Shown piece by piece: positions 3,856 through 55,271 of a stretch of 64,000 nt of DNA. Within the stretch, counting starts at the first letter, position 1; each line of letters opens with the position of its first letter. Made by a program: the position numbers and the translations under genes. The notes under the pieces were generated by a model, which made no database searches, was not told the origin of the DNA, and saw only the letters and a program-made list of their open reading frames with translations. The stretch is from a candidate division WOR-3 bacterium (GTDB lineage: Bacteria; Hydrothermota; Tepidihabitantia; SM23-42): contig JALVOT010000017.1 in assembly GCA_027026255.1 (NCBI GenBank), positions 177,670 to 241,669 of the forward strand, in the 5' to 3' direction.

Positions 3856-6465
3856 TTATTTCAAAAAAACTGCCTTTCTCGCCACGGCCTTGCTGTCTCT
3901 TTTCAGTTGTATAAAATAGACGCCGGCATTTTCGAGTGAAAAACTATATTCATAAGCGCCCGGGCTGAGTACCTTCTGAATAAAATCAATCTGCCTTCCT
4001 GATATATCGTAGATATCCAACCGTATTTTACCGCGAGATTTTAAAGTAAATCCAACCTTAAGAATTCCTTTCTGAGGTGAAGGAATATTAAGAGAGGCGG
4101 AAATCCCTTTTTCTTTATAGGCTTCAATTCCTGTAAGATATTCACGAATTAGATAGACACCGTCAGATTCATCTGCAAGATAAAGCATACGGCCGCTACA
4201 GGCGAGATTGACAGCATTGCCAAAAGACTCCATATATCCAATTTCCCTTGGATTTAAGGAGTCTGAAACATCAATCATCCTGACACCTTCAAAACCATCA
4301 GCCACAAAAAGACCATCACTCAGGAGCACCTTATTGGCAGTGCCCGGCGTATCAAGAGTGCCAAGCTGTTCCGGATTTACAGGATCGGAAATATTAAATA
4401 TCTTTATCCCGCGTCCACCGTCAGCCAGGTATATTAGATTATTTTTTAATACCAGACCCCGGGTAATGCCGTTTGTATTATAAAAACCGATCTCAACCGG
4501 AGCGGTGGGATCTGCGACATTTACCACCCTTAATCCCTTAGTTCCATCTGCCACAAAAGCAATGGTATCTCTTATTACAACATCATAGGCCTGTCCCGGA
4601 CTATCATACCTGCCTTCAAGTGATGGATTAGACGGCCTGGAAATATTAATTATAACAACCCCTGAAATTCGGCAGGCAGCATAAGCATAATTTCCGGAAA
4701 CGCAAATCGCCATTGGCTGGTCAACATTTAATCCCAGTTTTCCCACCTGGGCTGGATTGGTTGGACTGGAAATATCAATTACCCGAAGAGTATCTTCCTG
4801 GTCCAGGACATAAAGGTAAGAACCCGATGCCGCCAGGGCGACACTATTTCCTGGCAGAGCCAGATGATAGACCTCATCAGGCAGACTTGAATCAGAAAAG
4901 TCTGCAACCAATAAACCATCGGTTCCGTTCACAATATATGCATAATTCCCTGACAACACAAGTGCCTTTGCTGAATGAGGCAAACCATAGTGTCCAACCA
5001 GTTTCAGATTCGAACTATGTGCCGGAAAAGTTGATTGAATTTTATTAAAACTTCCGTCTGCAGCGAGCTTCTGATTTGAACTATTTAATCCGGCAATATT
5101 AATTCGGAATACAGAATCTATATCTGGAGCTACCCACAGATATTTACCCGTATTAGAAACATTATCCTTAATAAGCGTCCAGTTAAGAGAATCATAACTC
5201 GAAGATTGCCTGCCAATTGAATACCAGATTTTCAGATGATCAATATCCGAACCAGTTGTTGACCATTTAATCCAGTATTTCAGGTCCTTAAAAACAAATC
5301 CACCCCGGGGAAAATCGAGAAATATATTATCATTCACTGAACCGCCCGGGACAAATGTGACCACATAGTCATTAGAATATGTCCCCTGATAGTAAGTCCA
5401 GAGATTCCAGTACGGCTCGCCGCTCCAGCCCCAGGTAGTATGAACCTGCACAAATGTATCAGGCGGCTCAATCAGATAGCCTATTCCGGTCAAACAATGA
5501 TGGATGAATTGATTTCCATAATAATAATATGAAACCGCCCAGACGCAGGGTCTTCCTCCATCAATCTCATCCTTTAACCAGGAAAAGACCCATTGATTCC
5601 AGGAACTACCCTGGGATGATGTTAAGCTGTTGCAGGAATAGCCATTTACAGAATTAGCGACTGTTATCATACCGGGTTTTATATTGCTGATATAGGTTCC
5701 CCCGGTCATTGAATCGGTATTCATTGCCAGGGCAAGTTCCTTGGCAACATTAACACATTCCTTCCACTGGCTATAAGGTGGGTCATAACGGGTAAAATAG
5801 AAATCAACAAGCCGACCATAGCCGCGCGAATCCCAGTATCCGAAAATCATTGATGCCGATGTCGGACAACAGCCATAAACCCAGTCCTGGAAAGGAACTC
5901 CGGAAATATAAGCCGAATCCTGACGGGTTGTAAATGATGGAGTATTAAAATATCTTTCCCATTTTTCTCTGGTTAAAAGTTCAAGCGCTTTATCAGATTT
6001 AATCCGGGATTTTAAATCCCCTTTATCTATTTTTTTAAGTGTGGCTGAATTAATTAGAATTTCTTTATCCTGACATTTAAATCCGCAATATTCTTCACCC
6101 GGACCAAAATAGTATACCCTTTGAAATTGAGGTTCCATTTTAAATTCTTTCCTTGCCGCATTCAAAATTTTATCATAACCGGTTTTAAATCCTGGTAAAT
6201 CAAATGAAATCTCCCCAATCGGGGATGATGTCCATCTTGCACCCATTACAATATTTATAATATGATTATTAATGTTTTTATAAATCATCGCATAAGCATT
6301 TGGTTTATCATCAATACCGTAATAGGTCACTATCTGGTCCAGTTGATAATTACCAAAGCGTTCATTAATGAATTTTTCAGAAAGCGCCTTAACTTTTCCA
6401 AAAGGGATGAAATCTGAAGCAAAACTTAAACAAAAAATCATCAACAGCATAACCGCCTTTTTCAT
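3856..6465 (-). CDS. Peptidase C10 (streptopain/PrtT-like) domain fused to an LVIVD-repeat beta-propeller and a T9SS C-terminal sorting domain.
   Basis: 869-aa ORF with a signal peptide. The active-site Cys region is GCCPTSASMIFGYWD (compare GCVATAxAQIMKY of C10 peptidases) and the downstream signature is VHTTWGWSGEPYW. Repeated GxYxYxxxxxxGLxVIDISxPxxP units are LVIVD-like. The C-terminal CTD is GVYFIQLKRDSKAVARKAVFLK. Confidence 0.7.
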   Translation of the reverse strand: MKKAVMLLMIFCLSFASDFIPFGKVKALSEKFINERFGNYQLDQIVTYYGIDDKPNAYAMIYKNINNHIINIVMGARWTSSPIGEISFDLPGFKTGYDKILNAARKEFKMEPQFQRVYYFGPGEEYCGFKCQDKEILINSATLKKIDKGDLKSRIKSDKALELLTREKWERYFNTPSFTTRQDSAYISGVPFQDWVYGCCPTSASMIFGYWDSRGYGRLVDFYFTRYDPPYSQWKECVNVAKELALAMNTDSMTGGTYISNIKPGMITVANSVNGYSCNSLTSSQGSSWNQWVFSWLKDEIDGGRPCVWAVSYYYYGNQFIHHCLTGIGYLIEPPDTFVQVHTTWGWSGEPYWNLWTYYQGTYSNDYVVTFVPGGSVNDNIFLDFPRGGFVFKDLKYWIKWSTTGSDIDHLKIWYSIGRQSSSYDSLNWTLIKDNVSNTGKYLWVAPDIDSVFRINIAGLNSSNQKLAADGSFNKIQSTFPAHSSNLKLVGHYGLPHSAKALVLSGNYAYIVNGTDGLLVADFSDSSLPDEVYHLALPGNSVALAASGSYLYVLDQEDTLRVIDISSPTNPAQVGKLGLNVDQPMAICVSGNYAYAACRISGVVIINISRPSNPSLEGRYDSPGQAYDVVIRDTIAFVADGTKGLRVVNVADPTAPVEIGFYNTNGITRGLVLKNNLIYLADGGRGIKIFNISDPVNPEQLGTLDTPGTANKVLLSDGLFVADGFEGVRMIDVSDSLNPREIGYMESFGNAVNLACSGRMLYLADESDGVYLIREYLTGIEAYKEKGISASLNIPSPQKGILKVGFTLKSRGKIRLDIYDISGRQIDFIQKVLSPGAYEYSFSLENAGVYFIQLKRDSKAVARKAVFLK

Positions 6466-17649: not shown

Positions 17650-18234
17650 TCACTTCACAAGTTCTAATAATTTATTTGTCAAACTGGCTCCCCGGGATGG
17701 TCCGATAACCATACCTGCAGCCTTACCCAGGGCAAAGATAAAACGTCGGATATCATCCTCATATAGTTCATCAGGATTTATCTTCTGGGTCTTCAATTGA
17801 TTTTTATAGATTCTTTCTGTAAAATCCCCCAAGTAATCACTCATAACGGCCTTGATTTTATCCAGAAGTTCCGGACCCATTACCGACCCGGGTTTTTCTT
17901 CAGCTTCAGCTTCCGGCTTTCCTTTCAGTTCCTCAAGCAGGTTATAAAGTTGAGAAACATCCAGCCCGGCTCTGGAATCAAAAAGGGTTCCCACCAGAAA
18001 ATCATCTTCAAACTCTATAATTAAGGACTTCTTCTCACCCAGTATCTCCAGGGTATCAATCTTCACATCACCCACTGCATTGATTGTCTCAAAGAGCACA
18101 GTCGCGGTATGGGAAAATTTTTCAATCAGTGCCTCACCAGAACCGGTAGTGGAAACCTCACCGGAACTGGTTGCCGTAAAAGGACAGGGAAGTCCCCGGG
18201 ATTCAATCTTTTCCAATATATCTCTTTCTATCAT
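17650..18234 (-). CDS. Roadblock/LC7 (MglB-like) domain protein.
   Basis: 194-aa ORF. The N-terminal roughly 110 aa have the roadblock-like alternation, and an acidic C-terminal extension follows. The assignment comes from pattern and context, not from strict motifs. Confidence 0.4.
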   Translation of the reverse strand: MIERDILEKIESRGLPCPFTATSSGEVSTTGSGEALIEKFSHTATVLFETINAVGDVKIDTLEILGEKKSLIIEFEDDFLVGTLFDSRAGLDVSQLYNLLEELKGKPEAEAEEKPGSVMGPELLDKIKAVMSDYLGDFTERIYKNQLKTQKINPDELYEDDIRRFIFALGKAAGMVIGPSRGASLTNKLLELVK

Positions 18235-18914
18235 TTCATCCTTTCAATAACCGCCTGAACCTTAGCTCTTGCCTGGGATGAACCCATCTCTTCAACCGCC
18301 TCCTTTACCAGAAAGTCTATGATTGTGCGCAGTCCTTTAAGAAAATCTTCTTCTTTATCCTCAGGAGGTTTACTCTTAAAGACAAGTTTATTCTCAACAA
18401 TACCAACGAAAGGAAGCAAATCACCGGCGAACACAGTCAACCCCTTATTTAGACAATCAAGCCAATGTTTCAGATTTCCCTCACCGCCGAATTCACTCAC
18501 CAGAAGATTAATCTGACGCAGCTTGGAACTGAGACTTCGGGGAATCTCAGTCTTTGATTTTTCCTCTACCTCTACCTTTTTCTCTATCTCTACCTTTTCC
18601 TCTGCCTTCTTCCCGGCATCAGCCCGGATTCTTTCGATTATTGCCCGGGGATTGGCCTCGGCTTTAATCTCAAGACCAAGATATTTTGATTCATACAAAA
18701 AGATTAACAGCCGATTGCCGCCGTAATTGAATAATATGTATTTAATCTCACCAAGCTCCAGACTATTCTTTATCACCTCACCGGCTGATGAAAAAAAGGC
18801 GGTCAGGTCACCCAGAGGTCGGGATGAAGAACCCTTGACCTCTTCAACCGAACCATCCTCAGCATTGACAACCGCATACCCCAAAACCTCAACAATCTTA
18901 TCCAGTATCTCCAT
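18231..18914 (-). CDS. Roadblock/LC7 (MglB-like) domain protein.
   Basis: 227-aa ORF. The N-terminal region MEILDKIVEVLGYAVVNAEDGSVEEVKGS...GNRLLIFLYESKYLGLEIKAEANP resembles the LC7/roadblock fold. A charged C-terminal tail follows. Confidence 0.45.
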   Translation of the reverse strand: MEILDKIVEVLGYAVVNAEDGSVEEVKGSSSRPLGDLTAFFSSAGEVIKNSLELGEIKYILFNYGGNRLLIFLYESKYLGLEIKAEANPRAIIERIRADAGKKAEEKVEIEKKVEVEEKSKTEIPRSLSSKLRQINLLVSEFGGEGNLKHWLDCLNKGLTVFAGDLLPFVGIVENKLVFKSKPPEDKEEDFLKGLRTIIDFLVKEAVEEMGSSQARAKVQAVIERMK

Positions 18915-21210: not shown

Positions 21211-21834
21211 CTACTCCTTACCTCCGCCCATATAACTTCTCTCAATCCCTAATAAGACCCTCAAGCCCATAGAAATCATACCCAGGTCAATACCGAATAG
21301 AATTCCCCTTTTTGCTGCGGTATTGGGAACAGTCATTATCCATTCAACCAGATTGGGAAATCCATGCCAGATCCAGTAACCGATTGGAACCCGGCCGATC
21401 ATTACAAGCACGGCGGCAATCAAAAGCAGGGTCGCCTCAGGACTTCTGGCTCGAAACGCCCGAAATGCTGCTGAGGCGACAAAGAACGCCAGCAGTGAAA
21501 ACATCGTCGCACCCAAGGGAATCTGAACATTTTTGTAAAAATATAAAAACAATCCACCTTCGGGTCCGCCGATAAAACCGGCTGCCATCATAACCAGGAG
21601 GCAGATTAAAAGAATGATGCTGTACTGCCAATCCCTTAATCTTCTCTGAATCTTTTCAAGATTTATCTTAATGATATTAAATATTCCGATAAAGATAAAG
21701 AATGCCATCACCCCAATATACCAGTTCTGAAAGGTCTGGGATGTATCCTGAATTCCTTTCAAGGGAATAAAGAAACTTACCAGCATAAAGAAACCAAATC
21801 CAAAAACCACGATTATCGGTAAAATACTTTTCAT
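21211..21834 (-). CDS. Polytopic membrane protein. Paralogue of 1..477.
   Basis: 207 aa with 5-6 TM helices. Confidence 0.65.
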   Translation of the reverse strand: MKSILPIIVVFGFGFFMLVSFFIPLKGIQDTSQTFQNWYIGVMAFFIFIGIFNIIKINLEKIQRRLRDWQYSIILLICLLVMMAAGFIGGPEGGLFLYFYKNVQIPLGATMFSLLAFFVASAAFRAFRARSPEATLLLIAAVLVMIGRVPIGYWIWHGFPNLVEWIMTVPNTAAKRGILFGIDLGMISMGLRVLLGIERSYMGGGKE

Positions 21835-22913
21835 TATCTTGTTGTCTTAAAAAGGTTATAAAAATATTGATTGCCTAAGAGTCTTGTAATAACGCCAATC
21901 ACAATCACCAGAATAAATATCAGTTTGCCAAAATCCTGTCCTTTTAAAGAGCCAATTTGAATCGGTTCCTGGGATAGATAGGCACTTGCCGCATAAAGCT
22001 CTTCACCGAGCAGGGTGTAATCACAGGCCGCCACGAAGAATGGTAATTGATCAGGCATCGCCGTTCCTGCAATCTGGATTGCGCCGGTATAATGTCCGGT
22101 CTCAGCCAGAATGAGTGATTCTGCATAAAAGCAGCCGAGATAGAGATTGGTTGCCGGTTTCTCTCGAACCATCATACCATCCACCGCAGAGACATAACCG
22201 AACTGGTCGTCAGTAAGATACCGGATATTATCGGCATTAAACCAGTCAGGTCTTCCCACCTTGGTCGCTGACTCTTTAACTACCTGCTGCGCCATACTCA
22301 TCGCCATCGCCTTACTGGTCGGCACATAAAGTGGGGTGCCGTATTCTGCAGTCTTTTCCGCAACCCTGGCAAGGATACTCATCGCGGCAATGGTCTGGGG
22401 ATTATCGATATCCATTATCCCGGGGACAAACAGCACCGGCTTACCCATCTCAGTCGCCCGACCGATCGCCTCTTCGACCGCTGTAAGGGCTGGAATCTTT
22501 CTGATGTATAACTTTTCACCCTTGCGGGCACGGGAAATGTAGAAAAGAATTACGGCGAACAGGATAATCATACAGACGGCAATATTCAGACGGCCAAGAT
22601 TGAAAATCTGGGCAATCGGCCTTACCGGCCCCGCAGTATTTGAAAAAAACACCGTATCCAATCCGGCGCCTTTGATGCGATAATAATATTTAGTTCCGGC
22701 CTTTACCGCGGTATCCACATAGGTTGTCTTACCCGATTCAACCCGGGCGATCTCTTTAAAATCATGCTCCGGGAAGATACTGCGCAGGATTTGATAACTA
22801 CTTATTAATGTATCACTACTCCAGGACAGTGTAATACTGGAACCGTCGTCATTGGGTGTATCATAAACATCAAGACTTATCCCCTGCACCAGTATTAATA
22901 ATATCAAAAACAT
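21834..22913 (-). CDS. Membrane protein with an N-terminal fibronectin-III-like domain, two TM segments and a central domain of about 200 aa. First gene of the long minus-strand array.
   Basis: 359-aa ORF. The FN3-like region is SITLSWSS...YYYRIKGAG, followed by a TM helix LNIAVCMIILFAVILFYI. A leaderless sigma70 promoter lies immediately upstream. Confidence 0.5.
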   Translation of the reverse strand: MFLILLILVQGISLDVYDTPNDDGSSITLSWSSDTLISSYQILRSIFPEHDFKEIARVESGKTTYVDTAVKAGTKYYYRIKGAGLDTVFFSNTAGPVRPIAQIFNLGRLNIAVCMIILFAVILFYISRARKGEKLYIRKIPALTAVEEAIGRATEMGKPVLFVPGIMDIDNPQTIAAMSILARVAEKTAEYGTPLYVPTSKAMAMSMAQQVVKESATKVGRPDWFNADNIRYLTDDQFGYVSAVDGMMVREKPATNLYLGCFYAESLILAETGHYTGAIQIAGTAMPDQLPFFVAACDYTLLGEELYAASAYLSQEPIQIGSLKGQDFGKLIFILVIVIGVITRLLGNQYFYNLFKTTR

Positions 22914-22959
22914 TATATTATAATATTCAAATTTAAATAAATGTCAAGATGTAGAGGTT

Positions 22960-23364
22960 CTTACTCCTCTCCACTTTTTTCATTGTGCCTCCCGGATTAA
23001 TTGCAACGGTATTCTGGACAGAATAAATTTCCCTGAGATTATTAAACCAGGACGAAAAATACTCAACAACTTCGTTTTACTTTTTTATATTATTTTATTG
23101 GTCATTTGAAAAATTTCTCTACCATCTTTACTTGGTCCCATTTTCTCAGCGCGGACGGCATTTCCATTTTCTCAGCGCGGGCGGCGTTTCCATTTTTCTC
23201 AGCGCGGGCGGCGTTTCTCATTTTTCTCAGCGCGGGCGGCGTCCCCGCCGCCCGCTGGAGGTTTATCATTCCTGCAGCCCGCCAGGCGCCCTGCCTCGGG
23301 ACGGGACGCCCCCCGGCTATATTGTACTTACAAAAAGCCGGGACAAAAAGTGGAGGGAAATCAG
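22960..23364 (+). repeat. Repeat element copy A. It is full length and carries four 27-bp tandem units.
   Basis: Left terminal inverted repeat (TIR) CTTACTCCTCTCCACTTTTT, right TIR AAAAAGTGGAGGGAAATCAG. Internally, TTTTCTCAGCGCGGGCGGCGTTTCCAT-type units repeat four times and end in the hairpin GCGGGCGGC-gtcccc-GCCGCCCGC. Confidence 0.85.
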
Positions 23365-23523
23365 GTAGAGGTTTAAAACATTGCATCCATCCCAGGAAAA
23401 ATTTTTGAGGTGAAGAAGGATGTCTGTTCAGCAGAAATTATTCTAAAATAACTTCCTTGACTTTCCGATAAAATTTGCTAAACTAACTCACCAATTAACA
23501 ATAAAACTTTTAAAGGAGGTCTG

Positions 23524-31803: not shown

Positions 31804-31915
31804 CTGACTCCTCTCCACTTTTTGTCCTGGTTTTTTGTAAGCTATGTAGGTTACAATATAGCCGGGCGGCGTCTCGCCCCGAGGCGGGGACGCCGCCTTC
31901 GCTGAGAAAAATTGA
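31804..31915 (-). repeat. Repeat element copy F. It is a right-end stub in minus orientation.
   Basis: The reverse complement reads ...GCGGCGTCCCCGCCTCGGGGCGAGACGCC..CCGGCTATATTGTAACCTACATAGCTTACAAAAAACCAGGACAAAAAGTGGAGAGGAGTCAG. Confidence 0.75.
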
Positions 31916-35249: not shown

Positions 35250-35398
35250 AGTAGTATTATATCAGATTTTTAATGACTGTCAAGTGCAACCTGGCAAAAG
35301 TTCAGCATCGGATATTTTCAGGACAATAACTTGATTATTATTTTGTAAGATAACAAATGAAAAAAAAGAAAAAAAAATCATTCCTTATTATTTATTAT

Positions 35399-35769
35399 TT
35401 AACTCCTCTCCATTTTTTTCATTGTGCCTCCCGGATTAATTGCAACGGTATTCTGGACAGAATAAACTTCTCTGAGATTATTAAACCAAGACGAAAAATA
35501 TTCAACAACTTCGTTTTACTTTGTATTTATTTGTCATTTGAAAAATTTCTCTACCATCTTCGCCCGGTTCCGTTTTTCTCAGCGTGGGCGGCGTCCCCGT
35601 TTTTTTCAGCGCGGGCGGCGTTTCCATTTTTTTCAGCGCGGGCGGCGTCCCCGCCGCCCGCTGGAGGTTTATCATTCTTACAGCCCGCCAGGCGCCCTGT
35701 CTCGGGGCGGGACGCCCCCGGCTATATTGTACTTACAAAAAACCGGGACAAAAAGTGGAGGAAAGTCAG
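35399..35769 (+). repeat. Repeat element copy B. It is full length and carries three tandem units.
   Basis: Left TIR ..AACTCCTCTCCATTTTTTT and right TIR AAAAAGTGGAGGAAAGTCAG. The internal sequence is about 90% identical to copy A. Confidence 0.85.
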
Positions 35770-35815
35770 CCTTATTATACCTTGACAACTAAAAAATTAT
35801 GAATAGAATCAGAAT

Positions 35816-36331
35816 ATGAAAGGGATATCAAGGGTGATTCTATTTAAATATTTGACTCCTCAAGAAGTAAACTGGATGCTGGTAAAATGGCAGCCCAAGG
35901 AAGTGCGTGAGGGCACGGTTATTATTAAAGAAGGAACAACCGGTGATGAGATGTACATTATTGAATCAGGTAAGGTCGAGGTCTATCTCACCCGGGGAGA
36001 TGTTGTGCTTCTTCTGTCTGAATTGCAAGAGGCATCATTCTTTGGGGAAATGACCCTGCTAACCGATAAGCCTCGTTCCGCAACGGTTAAGGCAAAAACA
36101 AATTGTCGGTTACTGATCCTGAAAAAACAGGAATTTATGAAAATTATTGATGAGAATCCCCGGATTGCAGCAAAATTTCTTATGGCAATGGGTGAAGACC
36201 TTTCCAATCGAATAATGGCGACCAATGCCAATTTAGAAAATTATTTTCTGATAAATCAGGCGATTGTCGATAACAAATCCTTTCGGGATCTTTATATCCT
36301 TACCCATAAGGCCCCATCGTCTAGCGGTTAG
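35816..36331 (+). CDS. Cyclic-nucleotide-binding domain protein.
   Basis: 171-aa ORF with the cNMP-binding signature (FGEMTLLTDKPRSATVKA). There is no obvious DNA-binding HTH. The 3' end overlaps tRNA-Glu. Confidence 0.7.
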   Translation: MKGISRVILFKYLTPQEVNWMLVKWQPKEVREGTVIIKEGTTGDEMYIIESGKVEVYLTRGDVVLLLSELQEASFFGEMTLLTDKPRSATVKAKTNCRLLILKKQEFMKIIDENPRIAAKFLMAMGEDLSNRIMATNANLENYFLINQAIVDNKSFRDLYILTHKAPSSSG

Positions 36332-38699: not shown

Positions 38700-39236
38700 T
38701 CATTTAATTAAATAATTCCTGCATAAGGCAATTAGATATATTAAAATAATAATCAAAACAGTCGGCCATTCTGCTTTTAAGTTTCTCAGTTGAAATTTTT
38801 CTTTTTTTGTTGTTAGATTTTTCAGATAACGGGTTTCCGCATTGCTGATGATTGAATACTCGGCGATAAAGCAGAGAATAATTATTATTGACAACCAGGG
38901 TTGAGGGTTGAATAGAATTATTACGCCGCAGACAAGAAAGAAATTGCCGAAGTAAATCGGATGTTTTAAAAGTTTGAATGGACCATTTTCTATTTTAGAT
39001 TCTGTATTGAATTCTGAACCCCTCGATTTTTGACCCAGATATCCAACTGCCCATAACCTCAGACCAATACCTGTTATAATAAATGGAATTGACGACAAAT
39101 TCGCTTCCCGGGCAAAAATAATAATTAAAATAAAAAACGGCGCCGGGATGATGCCACGATGGTGATATAAAAAATGTCCTAAATTATAGATTTTTTTCAA
39201 CCCTATTGATTGGTCGATAGATATAATAATCTCCAA
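38700..39236 (-). CDS. Isoprenylcysteine carboxyl methyltransferase-family (ICMT/PEMT-like) membrane methyltransferase.
   Basis: 178-aa polytopic ORF. Its C-terminal region NGPFKLLKHPIYFGNFFLVCG is typical of the family. Confidence 0.6.
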   Translation of the reverse strand: MEIIISIDQSIGLKKIYNLGHFLYHHRGIIPAPFFILIIIFAREANLSSIPFIITGIGLRLWAVGYLGQKSRGSEFNTESKIENGPFKLLKHPIYFGNFFLVCGVIILFNPQPWLSIIIILCFIAEYSIISNAETRYLKNLTTKKEKFQLRNLKAEWPTVLIIILIYLIALCRNYLIK

Positions 39237-40623
39237 TCCTCTGCTGCAGAATGTAATTATCTTTTATCATTTCAGCCATCGCCTCGGTTAATCGGGTTCT
39301 ATCGATGGTTTTATTAAGGTCAAAGGTGAGAATAATTTTAGAAAATTTCCTTTCCCTTATATCCTGAAGAAAATCATTCTGTTTCCAGATTCTCTGGTTT
39401 GACAACTGGGTGAAGATAAAAGGCTGGAATAAAACTTCTTTATTATTAAGCACCAAAAGGCCGGCATCCTCGGATAAAATCGGTTCCGGGCTATGTTTGA
39501 TTACATCGGATAATATCCGCATCTGACGCTGACTTAGTCGCTTTCTGGTATATCCGGTTAAATAAGGAATATGGAAAAAGATTATTAATTGTATCAATAA
39601 AAGGGAATAGATTATAAACTTTTCTTTCTCTAATTTGTTTAAGACGCTTCCAATTATGATGGCACCGGCACCGATGAATTCACAGAAATAATTATAATTG
39701 GAGCCGACCTTCCCGGCACTCAATGCAACAATTCCGGATAGAATAAAGTAGTATATGAATAAATGATTCTGTTTGGGTCTATAAATAATCCAGAAAAATG
39801 TGAGACCGATTATTATTGAATGAATCTGCAGGGTTCTGATATACATCTTTATTAACTGATGCAGACTAAAAGTATTAATATTATAAATATAATTATGGAG
39901 AAAGAATTGTCCGTGGGTAAAATGGTTAATAAAAAAGAAGATTATTAAATAAAGACCAATCAATAAACAGACAAAGATGAGTGCCTTTTTGTAGTCTTTT
40001 GACAGCAGATATACCACTGCGGCGGCCGGTGCCGCGATAAAGGACTGTTTGGTATATAAGGCGAGGATAAAAAAAATTACCGCGCTGAAGACGATTCGGG
40101 AATTTTCAAATCTATAGATAAAATATAAACCTGCAAGGCTGAATAAAAATGCGAGGACATCAACCCTTGCGATTGGGAAATAATTATAGATATACGGTGA
40201 AGCGATAAAGAGCCCGGCAGCCAGAAATGCGCCAGGACGGTTTTTATCTTCTGCCTGATTCGATTTTTTTGATATGATATAGATCAACAATGCAGAAAAA
40301 AGGGTTGCCAGAAAGGTGATAAGACGGCCGGGGATAAATGAGATACCAAATAGTTTGATAAAAATGCTGTTTAAAAATGGAAACAAAGGGGGATAATTAC
40401 TTACAATATAGGGGTAGATATGGATATCTTGATAGATTGATTTTCCTTGGGCAAGCAGATCCGCCTGATTCAAAACAATGCCCTCACCATAGGCGACAGG
40501 AAACGGATAGGTGACTAAAAGATAAGATTGTAAAATAAAGAAAAGGGAATATACAATCAGCCCAACGATGATTGCAATTTTGAGCATCTTAAACATCGTT
40601 TTATGATATGAATCTTCTTTCAT
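39184..40623 (-). CDS. Polytopic glycosyltransferase, family 39/83-like (ArnT/PMT-type).
   Basis: 479-aa ORF with at least 10 TM helices. Its N-terminal architecture resembles dolichyl-phosphate-mannose / undecaprenyl-phosphate sugar transferases. Confidence 0.5.
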   Translation of the reverse strand: MKEDSYHKTMFKMLKIAIIVGLIVYSLFFILQSYLLVTYPFPVAYGEGIVLNQADLLAQGKSIYQDIHIYPYIVSNYPPLFPFLNSIFIKLFGISFIPGRLITFLATLFSALLIYIISKKSNQAEDKNRPGAFLAAGLFIASPYIYNYFPIARVDVLAFLFSLAGLYFIYRFENSRIVFSAVIFFILALYTKQSFIAAPAAAVVYLLSKDYKKALIFVCLLIGLYLIIFFFINHFTHGQFFLHNYIYNINTFSLHQLIKMYIRTLQIHSIIIGLTFFWIIYRPKQNHLFIYYFILSGIVALSAGKVGSNYNYFCEFIGAGAIIIGSVLNKLEKEKFIIYSLLLIQLIIFFHIPYLTGYTRKRLSQRQMRILSDVIKHSPEPILSEDAGLLVLNNKEVLFQPFIFTQLSNQRIWKQNDFLQDIRERKFSKIILTFDLNKTIDRTRLTEAMAEMIKDNYILQQRIGDYYIYRPINRVEKNL

Positions 40624-41086: not shown

Positions 41087-41150
41087 AAAGCCCTCCTTAT
41101 AAACTATAATATTCTAAAGAGAATTTTGTCTTTGTCAAGGGAGTTGTCCC

Positions 41151-41205
41151 CTGACTCCTCTCCACTTTTTATCTTGATTGTTTAAGAAATATGTAAGTTA
41201 CAGTG
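41151..41205 (-). repeat. Repeat element copy G. It is a short right-end stub in minus orientation.
   Basis: The reverse complement reads ...TGTAACTTACATATTTCTTAAACAATCAAGATAAAAAGTGGAGAGGAGTCAG. A further 16 nt separate this from TTGACA. Confidence 0.75.
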
Positions 41206-44946: not shown

Positions 44947-45162
44947 GCTTCGCGCGGTTCAATTTTTACCAGTGCGGGCGGTATTTCCATTTTTCTCAGC
45001 GCGGGCGGCGTCCCCGCCGCCCGCTGGAAATTTGTCATCCTCAACTCGTTTCAGAATCTCCTGCAGCCCGCCAGGCGCCCTGCCTCGGGGCGGGACGCCC
45101 GCCGGCTATATTGTAACCTACACAGCTTACAAAAACCGGGACAAAAAGTGGAGAGGAATCAG
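44947..45162 (+). repeat. Repeat element copy C. It is the right half only, with a roughly 45-bp internal insertion that is shared with copy E.
   Basis: ...CAGTGCGGGCGGTATTTCCATTTTTCTCAGCGCGGGCGGCGTCCCCGCCGCCCGC...CCGGCTATATTGTAACCTACACAGCTTACAAAAACCGGGACAAAAAGTGGAGAGGAATCAG. Confidence 0.8.
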
Positions 45163-45208
45163 AAATTTAATCTATTGACTTTTCATAATTTTTTATTACA
45201 ATATCAGT

Positions 45209-46312
45209 ATGAAGATATGCGTTGTGGGTGGAGGCAGACAGGGCAGAGTGGCTGCCCAGGATTTGGCTGAATCCGGGTATCGGGTTACGGTCCTGGATAT
45301 AAATAAAAAGAATCTTAAAAATCTTTCACAACATAAAAATATTACCACCAGGGTTTTTACGGTCGAGAACCGAAAACAGTTTGTGAAACTCTTGAAAAAA
45401 TTTGACCTCATTGTCGGTGCTCTGCCGGCAAGATTGGGCAGGTATTTAATGGAATGTGCAATTGATGCAGGGATCGACCTTGTTGACCTATCCTATTTAC
45501 CGGAAGACCCTTTCCTGCTTGATAAAAAGGCAAAGGCGAAGAAGGTGCGTATCGTTCCTGATGCCGGATTCGCCCCTGGTCTCAGTAATATTATTGTTGG
45601 TAGATTCAATGAAGAGTTTGGGGGTCTGGATTATATTAAGATTATGGTCGGTGGATTACCGCAGAAACCGGTTCCGCCATTCAATTACTACATTACCTGG
45701 TCACCGGTGGATCTGATTGAGGAGTATACAAGAACAGCCCGTATTGTAAGGAATGATAAAATATTAAAGATCGAACCCTTAACCGGGATTGAGGAGTTCA
45801 AGATACCCCGGATTGGTCGGCTTGAAGCATTTTATACAGATGGCTTAAGAACGCTGCTTCGCACATTTAAAAAAACCAAAAATATGGAAGAAAAAACAAT
45901 TCGTTATACTGGTCATGCCCGGATTTTCAAAACCCTGATCGATATCGGTCTTTTTTCAGACAGAAAGATTAAAATTAATAGAAGCAACATCATACTTAAA
46001 AATTTTACGCTTGAATTTTTAAAAGAGGCGTTAACCCGGGGTGATGAAAAAGATATCTCCATCCTCAGAATTGAATTGAAAAAAGGAAGAAAAAGATGTC
46101 GGATTGAATGTATTGATTATTATGATACACATAAGAAGATAACATCAATGGCAAGACTCACCGCATATACCGGTTCAATTATTGCCCAGCATATCAAGGA
46201 ATATCCAAAATTTGGTGTTATCGCTCCAGAATACCTCGGTCAGAACCGGGATATCTGGGATAAAATCGAAACCGAACTCAAAAAACGAAGGATTAAATTA
46301 AGCTATAGATAA
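45209..46312 (+). CDS. Saccharopine dehydrogenase-family NAD(P)-binding oxidoreductase.
   Basis: 367-aa ORF with the N-terminal Rossmann motif MKICVVGGGRQGRVAA. A leaderless promoter TTGACT-16-TACAAT-6-ATG lies upstream. Confidence 0.65.
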   Translation: MKICVVGGGRQGRVAAQDLAESGYRVTVLDINKKNLKNLSQHKNITTRVFTVENRKQFVKLLKKFDLIVGALPARLGRYLMECAIDAGIDLVDLSYLPEDPFLLDKKAKAKKVRIVPDAGFAPGLSNIIVGRFNEEFGGLDYIKIMVGGLPQKPVPPFNYYITWSPVDLIEEYTRTARIVRNDKILKIEPLTGIEEFKIPRIGRLEAFYTDGLRTLLRTFKKTKNMEEKTIRYTGHARIFKTLIDIGLFSDRKIKINRSNIILKNFTLEFLKEALTRGDEKDISILRIELKKGRKRCRIECIDYYDTHKKITSMARLTAYTGSIIAQHIKEYPKFGVIAPEYLGQNRDIWDKIETELKKRRIKLSYR

Positions 46313-46574
46313 AAAACCCGCGGTCCCTGAAGATATTGAGGTTGAATGGTATTCAGAAAAAGGGATTCATACAAGGCCGAAGAGACTATGTATCAGGGGT
46401 ATCTGGTATGAGGTCTTCCAATATGAAAAGCGTATTGTTGAGGACAGAAAATCAAAAAAGAGACAGATAATTTTCTCCTGTCATATTGGCGACAACCTTA
46501 TTGTGGAGGTTAAGGTTGAATACAGATAATCCTCCGGTCATAAAACACTCCGGCAGGGTAGTATGTAAAAAAAT

Positions 46575-46857
46575 CAGATAACCGAGATTATTAAACTAAG
46601 ACGGAAAAATACTCAACAACTTCGTTTTACTTTTTTTATATTATTTTATTGGTTATTTGAAAAAATTCTCTACCATCTTCGCCCGGTTCAATTTTTCTCA
46701 GCGCTGACGGCGTCCCCTTTTTTCTCAGCGCGGGCGGCGTCCCCGCCGCCCGCTGGAGGTTTGTCATTCTTACAACCCGCCAGGCACCCTGCCTCGGGGC
46801 GAGACGCCCCCGGCTATATTGTACTTACAAAAAACCGGGATAAAAAGTGAAGCTGAA
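46575..46857 (+). repeat. Repeat element copy D. It lacks the left terminus and has two tandem units and a degenerate right end.
   Basis: GAGATTATTAAACTAAGACGGAAAAATACTCAACAACTTCGTTTTAC...GCGGGCGGCGTCCCCGCCGCCCGC...CCGGCTATATTGTACTTACAAAAAACCGGGATAAAAAGTGAAGCTGAA. Confidence 0.8.
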
Positions 46858-46906
46858 CCATCCCTTTCAACCTTGACATTCAATCTTTTCCAGATATTAT
46901 GTAGTT

Positions 46907-47359
46907 ATGATTCTTTTTCTTATCTCCTTTTCATTGGCTGTTGAAGGCGGTTATTTCCAGCCATTTAATGGTTTTGAAGATATAAATAGGGGTGTTTGTT
47001 TGACCATCACAATGAAGAAAAACGAATCACCTATAATCTATGGTCTTTTTTTTAACACAATGTATTGCCCGGGCAAGAATCCAGATTATTCCCTGAACAA
47101 AACCGACCTGGGGTTTATTATATATCAGGGAAGATGGCGGCTGTCCCCGGTATTTGAGTTCGGCGTCGATTATATTAAGCGTCATCTTTCAGAATATCAA
47201 GAGATCGGTTATGGATTTTCATACGGAATTGGTGTATTATTCAATTTTAATTATGAACAGATTCATATTATTCCCGGGATATATTATGACGGCGTTACTG
47301 ACTTTAAAGAGAACGGGGGATTTCTGGGATTACGATTGGGAATCGATTATGAAATATAA
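46907..47359 (+). CDS. Hypothetical protein.
   Basis: 150-aa ORF rich in Tyr/Gly/Phe, suggesting a beta-rich fold. A leaderless promoter lies upstream. Confidence 0.4.
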   Translation: MILFLISFSLAVEGGYFQPFNGFEDINRGVCLTITMKKNESPIIYGLFFNTMYCPGKNPDYSLNKTDLGFIIYQGRWRLSPVFEFGVDYIKRHLSEYQEIGYGFSYGIGVLFNFNYEQIHIIPGIYYDGVTDFKENGGFLGLRLGIDYEI

Positions 47360-54138: not shown

Positions 54139-54156
54139 ATTACCGCTTATTCTCAG

Positions 54157-54496
54157 CTGATTCCTATCCACTTTTTTCATTATGCCTCCGGGATTAATTG
54201 CAACGGTATTCTGGACAGAATAAACTTCCCTGAGATTAGTAAAATAAGATGAAAAATACTCAACAACTTCGTTTTACTTTTTTTATATTATTATTGGTCA
54301 TTTGAAAAATTTCTCTACCATCTCCGCCCGGTTCAATTTTTTCTCAGCGCGGGCGGCGTCCCCGCCGCCCGCTGGAGGTTTGTCATCCTCAACTCGTTTC
54401 ATACTCGCCGGGCGCCCTGCCTCGGGGCGAGACGCCCCTCCGGCTATATTGTAACATAGTTTAAAAAAACCGGGACAAAAAGTGGAGAGAAGTCAG
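54157..54496 (+). repeat. Repeat element copy E. It is full length and carries one tandem unit.
   Basis: Left TIR CTGATTCCTATCCACTTTTT and right TIR AAAAAGTGGAGAGAAGTCAG. Sixteen nt downstream lies TTGATT-16-TATAAT-6-ATG of the pcrB-like gene. Confidence 0.85.
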
Positions 54497-54542
54497 TATT
54501 CTCAGCCCTTGATTTTTTTCCTTACTCAGGTATAATCAAGAT

Positions 54543-55271
54543 ATGGCAATAAAAAAGGTCTCGGCACTTCTTAATAGACTAAAACCCGGGGTGCTGGCTT
54601 TATTCGACCCGGACCGAATACAATGGGGAAACATTGAATCCCTGACCCGGTTCGTATGCGAATCCGGTGTAAAAGGTATCCTTATCGGTTCATCAATCCT
54701 GCTCAACCCCAATTTCGAGCAATTCGTCCTTAAGGTTAAGAAAAATGCTACCTGTCCGGTAATCCTCTTTCCCGGAGGCTCACATCAATTATCTTCCTAT
54801 GCTGATGCCATCTTCTTCCTTTCACTTTTAAGCGGCAGAAATCCTCAATTTTTAATCGGTGAACAGATTAAGGCGGTCTTTTTAATAAAAGAATATAACT
54901 TAGAAGTGATTCCGGTCGGTTATATTCTGATTGAATCAGGAAGCCTTACGGCGGTGGAATATATTTCCGGAACAAAACCCATTCCATATTCCAAACCGGA
55001 GATTGTTATCGCCCATTGTCTTGCCGGACAATATTTCGGGATGAAATATATCTATCTTGAAGCCGGGAGTGGCGCGAAAAGACCGGTTCCGGAAAATGTC
55101 GTCCGGATGGTCAAAAAATATATTAACATCCCCTTAATTGTTGGTGGTGGTATCCGTCGGGAAAAAGATGCCCGGGAGCTTCTGAATGCCGGTGCCGATT
55201 ATATTGTCTTGGGAAGTGTAATTGAGAAATCAAAAAAGACCTTTAAAAAAATTATGAGGAGTTTAATATGA
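54543..55271 (+). CDS. (Hepta)prenylglyceryl-phosphate synthase family protein (PcrB/GGGPS-like TIM barrel).
   Basis: 242-aa ORF with the C-terminal phosphate-binding motif IPLIVGGGIRREKDARELLNAGADYIVLGS. Confidence 0.6.
   Translation: MAIKKVSALLNRLKPGVLALFDPDRIQWGNIESLTRFVCESGVKGILIGSSILLNPNFEQFVLKVKKNATCPVILFPGGSHQLSSYADAIFFLSLLSGRNPQFLIGEQIKAVFLIKEYNLEVIPVGYILIESGSLTAVEYISGTKPIPYSKPEIVIAHCLAGQYFGMKYIYLEAGSGAKRPVPENVVRMVKKYINIPLIVGGGIRREKDARELLNAGADYIVLGSVIEKSKKTFKKIMRSLI

Follow-up and report, generated by a model that had tools for sequence, protein, structure and literature searches.

BOX elements in Streptococcus pneumoniae consist of the modules boxA-boxB(n)-boxC. Strains differ in how many boxB modules they have, which has been put down to slippage or unequal crossover (PMC3049150), and the number is used as a variable-number tandem repeat (VNTR) typing marker (PMC3049150, PMC1315331). 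The tandem array described here is found at positions 23141–23242 of a 64,000 nt stretch of DNA (positions 177,670–241,669 of contig JALVOT010000017.1, assembly GCA_027026255.1; the whole stretch is termed the window) from a candidate division WOR-3 bacterium. It belongs, as a BOX-like variable module, to a new family of MITEs (short for miniature inverted-repeat transposable elements) that comes from a rare IS4/IS10-like insertion sequence (IS). As in BOX, there is a dispersed, intergenic, MITE-like repeat with a tandem middle module of variable number between conserved ends. However, the unit is 27 bp as opposed to 45 bp, and it is not self-contained but makes up the 5' half of a hairpin. 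The element also differs from BOX by its clear terminal inverted repeats (TIRs), 9-bp target-site duplications (TSDs), matching autonomous IS, promoter-anchored insertion and WOR-3 lineage. The resemblance is an analogy only, with no sequence relationship. The array is probably a structural polymorphism carried by an IS4-family (IS10-like) MITE that inserts beside promoters, and not a phase-variation switch of the host.

Contingency loci, e.g., in Neisseria and Haemophilus, have many perfect units of 1–8 nt that are situated within or between promoter elements or in open reading frames (ORFs). These loci and the mycobacterial interspersed repetitive unit (MIRU) VNTRs are similar to the present array in that they are intergenic tandem repeats whose number differs between loci or strains. 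The array has 1–4 imperfect 27-nt units at more than 100 bp from a promoter, unlike contingency loci, and its behaviour is closer to that of the MIRU and BOX VNTRs. Correia (NEMIS) elements in Neisseria are also small, bounded by TIRs and present immediately upstream of genes, where they can influence transcription (PMC10969869), but they carry their own promoters, whereas here the promoter pre-exists and is outside the TSD. The IS10 subgroup of the IS4 family has 9-bp direct repeats, CT ends, a length of 1200–1350 bp and a DDE transposase with a YREK motif (PMC2266710). The IS related to the MITE shares the YREK transposase, the 5'-CT ends, the 9-bp repeats and a length of about 1.2 kb. MITEs and cassettes derived from IS4-family elements, such as MIC231 of IS231, likewise keep only the ends of the parent element, and one relative of the MITE has a passenger gene.

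Anatomy of the element and its array

The host of the array is a small non-autonomous transposon, a MITE, with the array as its variable middle module. Full-length copies are 340–405 bp from TIR to TIR. The TIRs are 20 bp and inverted (CTGACTCCTCTCCACTTTTT and AAAAAGTGGAGAGGAGTCAG; CTGAyTCCTCTCCACTTTTT and AAAAAGTGGAGrGrArTCAG in copies A, B and E), and the TIR 20-mer has seven matches at three or fewer mismatches where none is expected. Direct repeats of 9 bp are directly outside the ends of A, B and E (Table 1) and are perfect in A and E. The element is multi-copy, with at least 8 copies within the approximately 74 kb of this genome that was read. No transposase gene is present inside the MITE, and its ORFs have no homologues and have broken frames. 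TIRs together with TSDs are the signature of a cut-and-paste DDE transposon, and since there is no transposase gene inside, the element is classed as a MITE. The five copies of the preliminary description (A–E) are all real, but more exist: F and G in the window, and H and I just upstream of it. Copies C, D, F and G, like H and I, retain the promoter-proximal end only. H and I are arranged head-to-tail, 13 bp apart, with no left half and with one transition in the left arm. In copy F, a deletion has fused the left arm and loop of the hairpin to a second G+C hairpin.

The array of copy A is a tandem repeat with a period of 26–27, 3.8 copies, 94% matches and a score of 174 as determined by Tandem Repeats Finder (TRF). 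The repeat unit is 26–28 bp and consists of TTTTTCTCAGCGCGGGCGGCG plus 5–7 nt. A 14-nt core of the unit, CAGCGCGGGCGGCG, has 12 window matches at two or fewer mismatches, compared with 0.1 expected from shuffled sequences. The tandem repeat is thus real, but the period of 27 bp first reported is not strict, as the non-terminal units in copy A are 26, 26 and 28 nt. These unit lengths break any reading frame, and the array is therefore non-coding; a protein-coding array is also ruled out by the ORFs without homologues. The 142-aa ORF across copy B has no homologue but itself in a set of 5.8 billion proteins.

Reading and aligning the dispersed copies confirms the unit counts reported earlier: four in A, three in B, two in C, two in D and one in E. 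F has one unit, and H and I have two each. The last unit of A–E always runs on into the hairpin GCGGGCGGC-GTCCCC-GCCGCCCGC, also as first described; the five copies share the 24-nt hairpin GCGGGCGGCGTCCCCGCCGCCCGC without a single difference, and in A it is at positions 23232–23255. It has a stem of 10 bp, G+C in composition, and a loop of 4 nt (copy A). When folded as DNA it has a delta G of -16.8 kcal/mol (z = -4.3). Units A1–A3 are each built of a T-tract, CAGC, the left arm GCGGGCGGC and a tail that is (G/A)TTTCCA or GTTTCTCA. A comparison of all units supports the proposal that each represents the 5' half of the hairpin.

The array is in the middle of the MITE, with an A+T-rich half on the left and G+C hairpins that make up the right half. 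It is 104–123 bp from the right element end in A–E and at least 116 bp from the -35 hexamer adjoining that end. The alignment of A–E shows 38 invariant columns in the terminal unit and hairpin, and this conservation exceeds that of the TIRs. A search of the window against Rfam gives matches to tRNAs only, and the best match of the element itself is far below threshold (RT-3, 17.7 vs 40.5 bits). Since scans for the exact 28-mer (hairpin plus TGGA) give 0 matches in the genome-contig and metagenome-contig collections, the MITE with the VNTR is so far known from this metagenome-assembled genome (MAG) alone.

Two other sequence features are present in the element. An optional module of about 20 nt (GTCATyCTCAACTCGTTTCAGAAwCTCC) is found in C at positions 45033–45058, where it is an extra segment (CAACTCGTTTCAGAATCTCC), in E at positions 54385–54405, and in H and I. 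It resembles a small palindromic repeat, GTCATTCTGAACTTGTTTCAGAATCTC, that is present three times upstream of the isoleucyl-tRNA synthetase (IleRS) gene in the closest relative (L002, approximately 900–1210; locus numbers with L denote DNA outside the window) and also in another WOR-3 MAG (L022, approximately 200–230). A perfect 14-bp palindrome, ATTCTGGACAGAAT, is kept in the A+T-rich left half of A (23011–23024), B (35450–35463) and E (54208–54221), and may be a protein-binding site.

Related elements and insertion upstream of -35 hexamers

An autonomous IS with the same ends as the MITE is present at locus L131, in metagenome DNA from sediment. Its ORF of 359 aa scores 177 bits in the NCBIfam model NF033591, 'IS4 family transposase', for which the cutoff is 152, and also matches Pfam DDE_Tnp_1 (3.8e-15). 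The Y-2-R-3-E-6-K motif is found in the translation, where it reads 'YAQRMTIEEGFRDIK'. There are only 15 relatives of this transposase in the 5.8-billion-protein set, and none is named. The IS fits the IS10 subgroup by its 5'-CTGA ends and 9-bp TSD, and its length of 1181 bp is slightly under the range quoted for that subgroup. Ends that match or are related are also found on four more distinct IS insertions (L138/139, L141-144, L145 and L146). The 20-bp ends and an IS4-family transposase are common to L131, L138/139, L145 and L146; the L141-144 transposase is only 40% identical and the ends have diverged (CTGACCACTCCCCACTTTTT). The right subterminal sequence of the MITE is similar to the left end of the IS, and the left subterminal sequence to the right end. 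Because of this resemblance, the MITE appears to be a deletion/filler derivative of such an IS. With its matching ends and IS4-family transposase, an IS of the L131 type could mobilise the MITE, to judge from sequence.

An outward-reading GGAGG-N5-ATGAAAAAAGTGGAGAGGAGTCAG runs through the right end of the IS (L131 8290–8317, L138, L145 and L146). The GGAGG is Shine-Dalgarno-like, with an ATG 5–6 nt further on (GTG in L146), and is conserved across the IS copies. The same segment is retained in the MITE when read on the minus strand (22980–22995, 35419–35434 and 54177–54192).

Relatives with other interiors also occur. A scan of JGI metagenomes with the TIR 20-mer gives 55 loci, many from White Oak River and other sediments. 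Inverted TIR pairs at these loci bound many elements of 171–616 bp that have unrelated interiors and 9-bp duplications; at eight of the loci the TSDs have 0–2 mismatches. One such element (L125 5136–5751, 616 bp) has the MITE TIRs, the TSD GGAATACA(C/T) and an ORF of 123 aa for a DUF559 (endonuclease-like) protein (Pfam, 3.1e-36), and is a mobile-insertion-cassette-like relative of the MITE. A second MITE family has the same TIRs and a 36-bp tandem module on the hairpin CCCTCCCCC-ATTAAT-GGGGGAGGG, with 3.5 copies of the module in L115 (6341–6694) and 2.2 in L125 (5136–5751). Hairpin-seeded internal VNTRs thus recur in the group, as this family has its own 36-bp hairpin module. The TIR 20-mer is not present in the fetched loci of WOR-3 relatives at about 74% IleRS identity. 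In the closest relative, a copy of the TIR (L002 4723–4742) faces the 3' end of the IleRS gene from about 80 bp downstream, and the contig ends 63 bp later, at 4805. This suggests that an IS or MITE at the contig end broke the assembly. The equivalent of this site in the window is copy F, in the opposite orientation.

The element ends have a fixed position with respect to promoters. In six copies (A, B, C, E, G and I) a -35-like hexamer starts 12 nt (the 9-bp TSD plus 3 nt) beyond the end; in D the distance is 11 nt. The promoter-proximal end is the left one in copy A and the right one in B, C, E, G and I. In all DNA fetched, TTGAC starts exactly 12 nt past the end at 26 of 70 unique TIR ends, and at any other offset there are two or fewer. 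Where TTGA is at +12, 25 of 29 sites have a TATAAT-like hexamer behind a spacer of 16 nt. Every TSD-verified element has the TSD, 3 nt and TTGAC(A/T) on one flank, and either flank is possible. The 12-bp rule holds in all five distinct autonomous IS insertions (L131, L138/139, L141-144, L145 and L146), and the L139 IS has TTGACG at +12 on both flanks.

A comparison with other hexamers was made in the window. There are 13 sites with TTGAC(A/T)-N16/17-TAnnnT and at least five of six -10 matches, all with a 16-nt spacer. An element end is present at five of these 13 strong promoter sites, compared with none of the 55 other TTGAC(A/T) hexamers. Purifying selection against genic insertions could be a contributor to this contrast. 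Because no promoter lies within a duplication, and neither the spacers nor the genes downstream are related to one another, the promoters would have pre-existed, and the elements would have inserted at about -47. The elements adjoin promoters because this IS/MITE group inserts with one end 12 bp upstream of a -35 hexamer. The conserved 20-mer was also considered as a lineage-wide promoter or activator motif, and was rejected: it is flanked by TSDs, occurs as inverted pairs around unrelated interiors and bounds a transposase gene.

The target preference of IS10 lies within its 9-bp duplication, unlike the specificity found here, which is in one flanking arm, with TTGAC(A/T) 3 nt beyond the duplication. 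The IS4 family has precedents for target specificity in a flank arm (PMC2266710). Literature searches on promoter-anchored IS targeting and on WOR-3 repeats gave no description of elements anchored in this way. We favour, with some reservation, the proposal that these elements represent a new 'promoter-hunting' group of transposons, which comprises IS4/IS10-like ISs and families of MITEs and cassettes. Their ends would be placed at about -47 of sigma-70-type promoters, in the order element end, 9-bp duplication, 3 nt, TTGAC(A/T), 16 nt and TATAAT, such that the core promoter stays intact and everything upstream is replaced. What the transposase reads would be the -35 hexamer itself, similar to its own CTGAC end, or else RNA polymerase bound at the promoter. 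By the same proposal at least one third of the strong promoters in this WOR-3 genome would have an insert, with the hairpin/VNTR module as a possible means to tune these promoters or to insulate them.

Origin of the array and alternative explanations

Units B1 and D1 retain the hairpin loop (GTCCCCG or GTCCCCT), and the next T-tract follows directly. This places the breakpoint of the duplication at the hairpin apex, which is the outcome that would be expected of stalling and slipping at the hairpin. The commoner unit tail, TTTCCA, is TCCCCG with three transitions. Variants are common to adjacent units, i.e., A2 and A3 have identical cores, B2 and B3 have TTTTTTTCAG, and I1 and I2 have GCGTGGG, and this points to duplication in place or to conversion. 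The slippage-type origin that had been proposed is plausible in light of the junctions at the loop and of these shared variants. The distal units A1, C1, D1 and H1 differ from the terminal unit at 2–7 of 27 positions, and a more degenerate 'unit 0' is found upstream, in register, with 13 of 27 matches by our own count. Because the units far from the hairpin are degraded, turnover of the array appears to be slow, on the time scale of the divergence between element copies.

A sequence of events can be proposed. In a strong G+C hairpin with a preceding T-tract, the segment T-tract, left arm and loop would have been duplicated in tandem, most likely by stalling and slipping of replication at the hairpin or by unequal exchange between units. 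Single insertions may then have gained or lost units, which now number 1–4. The far units would decay by point mutation, and the units adjacent to the hairpin would stay alike.

The preliminary description proposed a contingency (phase-variable) locus, where a change in unit number by slippage would act through spacing and helical phase to switch or tune the adjacent promoter. The unit number does differ among copies, from 1 to 4, and the variants common to adjacent units suggest duplication or conversion in situ; the elements are directly upstream of promoters, and 27 bp does not correspond to an integral number of helical turns. However, the arrays do not consist of many identical short units. 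The units are few (1–4), long (26–28 nt) and imperfect, with 2–7 differences in the distal units, and the repeat is neither in an ORF nor in or next to a core promoter, but is non-coding and stands more than 100 bp from the element end, with the -35 hexamer further away still. The rationale of spacing and helical phase is not supported either. The 'promoter-proximal motif' is a transposon TIR that is also present on an autonomous IS4-family element, and the geometry of array and promoter is not constant, since either end can face the promoter and copy A uses the left one. A contingency locus is thus quite improbable. Another proposal, that the array is iteron-like and its left arm binds the transposase or a host protein with an effect on transposition or DNA architecture, finds support in the conserved 14-nt core, present as direct repeats at a spacing of about 27 bp. 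But this core shows no resemblance to the TIR, to which the transposase must bind, neither the autonomous IS nor the other MITE families that share these ends have it, and one unit is evidently enough (copies E and F). We consider an iteron-like role very improbable.

A further proposal is that the hairpin has a function for the element or the host. Hairpin and half-copies may represent a barrier or RNA-stability structure that stops read-through from genes upstream into the promoter, with a strength modulated by the unit number as with boxB. Conservation of the terminal hairpin exceeds that of the TIRs, G+C hairpins follow one another in the right half of the MITE, and the terminator scan flags each non-terminal unit as a weak 5-bp stem with a T-run. 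BOX modules are also found to affect the expression of neighbouring genes (PMC3049150). The strong hairpin, however, is not a canonical intrinsic terminator (a G+C stem-loop and then a U-tract), as no T-run follows it on either strand: the sequence 3' of it is TGGAGGTTT on the plus strand and GCTGAGAAAAA on the minus strand, and the scan flags just the weak stems. A consensus fold of the eight-copy alignment has almost no covariation, with one compensatory pair in 38 and a positive (unfavourable) term, although the copies are too alike to give this test power. Copy F has persisted despite loss of its hairpin by deletion. On these grounds an insulator or RNA element is unlikely, but a modest probability is kept for it because the terminal unit and hairpin are invariant over 38 columns.

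An artefact of assembly, in which the unit counts of a multi-copy repeat are mis-resolved from short reads, must also be considered, as the source is a MAG. The contig is metagenome-assembled and the unit counts rest on short-read assembly. A Logan contig of another run breaks exactly at the MITEs that flank the gene at 45209–46312. But the unit variants and the flanks are particular to each array, the whole array, at about 120 bp or less, fits in one read pair, and an ENA scaffold (JOHN19-1_SAMN10217873 scaffold_39) is identical to the window over 9149 bp. The probability of an artefact is close to negligible.

Several points weigh against an array that is simply a structural polymorphism of a promoter-seeking MITE. 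No copy of the autonomous IS is seen in the part of this genome that was covered, approximately 74 kb. In the window, six of the seven classifiable cases have the same element end towards the promoter, which is a bias in orientation. The invariance of the hairpin hints at a constraint, either function or conversion between copies, that a purely neutral interpretation does not explain. All unit counts come from one strain, and the variation is that seen between dispersed copies. Finally, the influence of boxB on neighbouring genes in BOX elements (PMC3049150) is a precedent by which the unit number might have a quantitative effect on expression here.

Other features of the window and implications

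The positions of the elements, units and promoters are listed in Table 1.

Table 1. Positions of the element copies, array units and adjoining promoters. Positions are those of the window unless a locus number (L) is given; distances are from the element end to the -35 hexamer.
Feature	Position	Strand	Size or units	Remarks
MITE copy A	22960–23364		405 bp	left TIR 22960–22979 CTTACTCCTCTCCACTTTTT; right TIR 23345–23364 AAAAAGTGGAGGGAAATCAG
Copy A TSD	22951–22959 (left), 23365–23373 (right)		9 bp	GTAGAGGTT
Copy A non-terminal units	23141–23166 (A1), 23167–23192 (A2), 23193–23220 (A3)	+	26, 26 and 28 nt	
Copy A terminal unit	23221–23261	+		with complete hairpin
MITE copy B	35399–35769		371 bp, 3 units	
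Copy B TSD	35383–35391, 35770–35778		9 bp	CCTTATTAT; left one followed by a 7-bp TTATTAT duplication (later slip)
Copy B units	35573–35667		3 units	
Copy C	44969–45162	+	2 units	no left half or left TIR; right TIR 45143–45162
Copy C units	44969–45030		2 units	
Copy D	46557–46861	+	2 units	left end missing; right TIR decayed (AAAAAGTGAAGCTGAACCAT)
Copy D units	46692–46759		2 units	
MITE copy E	54157–54496		340 bp, 1 unit	perfect 9-bp TSD TATTCTCAG at 54148–54156 and 54497–54505
Copy E unit	54337–54378		1 unit	
Copy F	31804–31911	-	1 unit	short deletion derivative; perfect TIR (CTGACTCCTCTCCACTTTTT on + strand)
Copy G	41151–41202	-		end remnant; perfect TIR and about 30 nt of subterminal sequence
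Copies H and I	L137 6030–5819 and 5805–5610		2 units each	9.5 kb upstream of window position 1
Autonomous IS	L131 7137–8317		1181 bp	ends as MITE; perfect 9-bp TSD CTGAGTTAG
Element end with -35 site	22942–22979, 35750–35787, 45143–45180, 54477–54514, 41133–41170			also in L083–L146
Promoter at copy A	22920–22947	-		sigma-70-type, TTGACA-N16-TATTAT; DUF6754 gene (21834–22913, -); TSD and ATC, then -35
Promoter at copy B, right end				TTGACA-N16-TAGAAT-6 nt-ATG; cNMP-binding-domain gene; 12 nt
Promoter at copy C, right TIR				TTGACT-N16-TACAAT; 12 nt
Promoter at copy D				TTGACA-N16-TATTAT; 11 nt
Promoter at copy E, right end				TTGATT-N16-TATAAT-6 nt-ATG; PcrB-family gene; 12 nt
Promoter at copy G				TTGACA-N16-TAGAAT; 12 nt

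Near-consensus promoters with a 16-nt spacer and a -10 hexamer just 6 nt before the ATG are found at positions 35782–35818, 45175–45211, 46873–46909 and 54509–54545, and the same type is found on the minus strand at 35283–35247 and 22947–22911. With so short a distance to the ATG, many genes in this WOR-3 MAG look leaderless. A tandem repeat of 18 bp with a 6-bp sub-period, TTTTCCTCTACCTCTACC, was detected by TRF at positions 18559–18613 within the minus-strand ORF 18231–18914 and is probably a coding repeat. The ORF at 39184–40623, in a low-G+C patch, was considered as a transposase gene and ruled out; it is PMT_2 glycosyltransferase-like. The region of the ENA scaffold is also carried by an NCBI contig of 242 kb. 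Exact-protein look-ups of the flanking genes give only the ENA and NCBI contigs of the same strain and an identical 1.2-kb Logan contig, which breaks at the MITEs; three look-ups give no match. The IleRS of this genome is 85% identical to that of the closest MAG relative and about 74% identical to those of WOR-3 MAGs.

The 27-bp array by itself is an ordinary feature and at most a VNTR for strain typing of an uncultured WOR-3 bacterium, although it illustrates how hairpins seed tandem duplications. Of more value is the documentation, with TSDs, of a DDE transposon group whose integration sites keep a fixed distance to bacterial -35 hexamers.

In eukaryotes, Ty3 integrates at RNA polymerase III start sites and Tf1 upstream of RNA polymerase II promoters, i.e., at a fixed or narrow promoter position, and both avoid coding sequence. 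These are long terminal repeat retrotransposons that are tethered by transcription factors, whereas the elements here are a bacterial DDE IS and its MITEs. If the targeting is active, it would be a bacterial counterpart of promoter-tethered integration in eukaryotes and a natural 'safe-harbour' strategy for IS elements, and it may provide a tool to mark or rewire promoters. It also gives a caution for the annotation of these lineages, in that the 20-mer that is conserved upstream of many promoters belongs to a transposon and is no binding site for a regulator.

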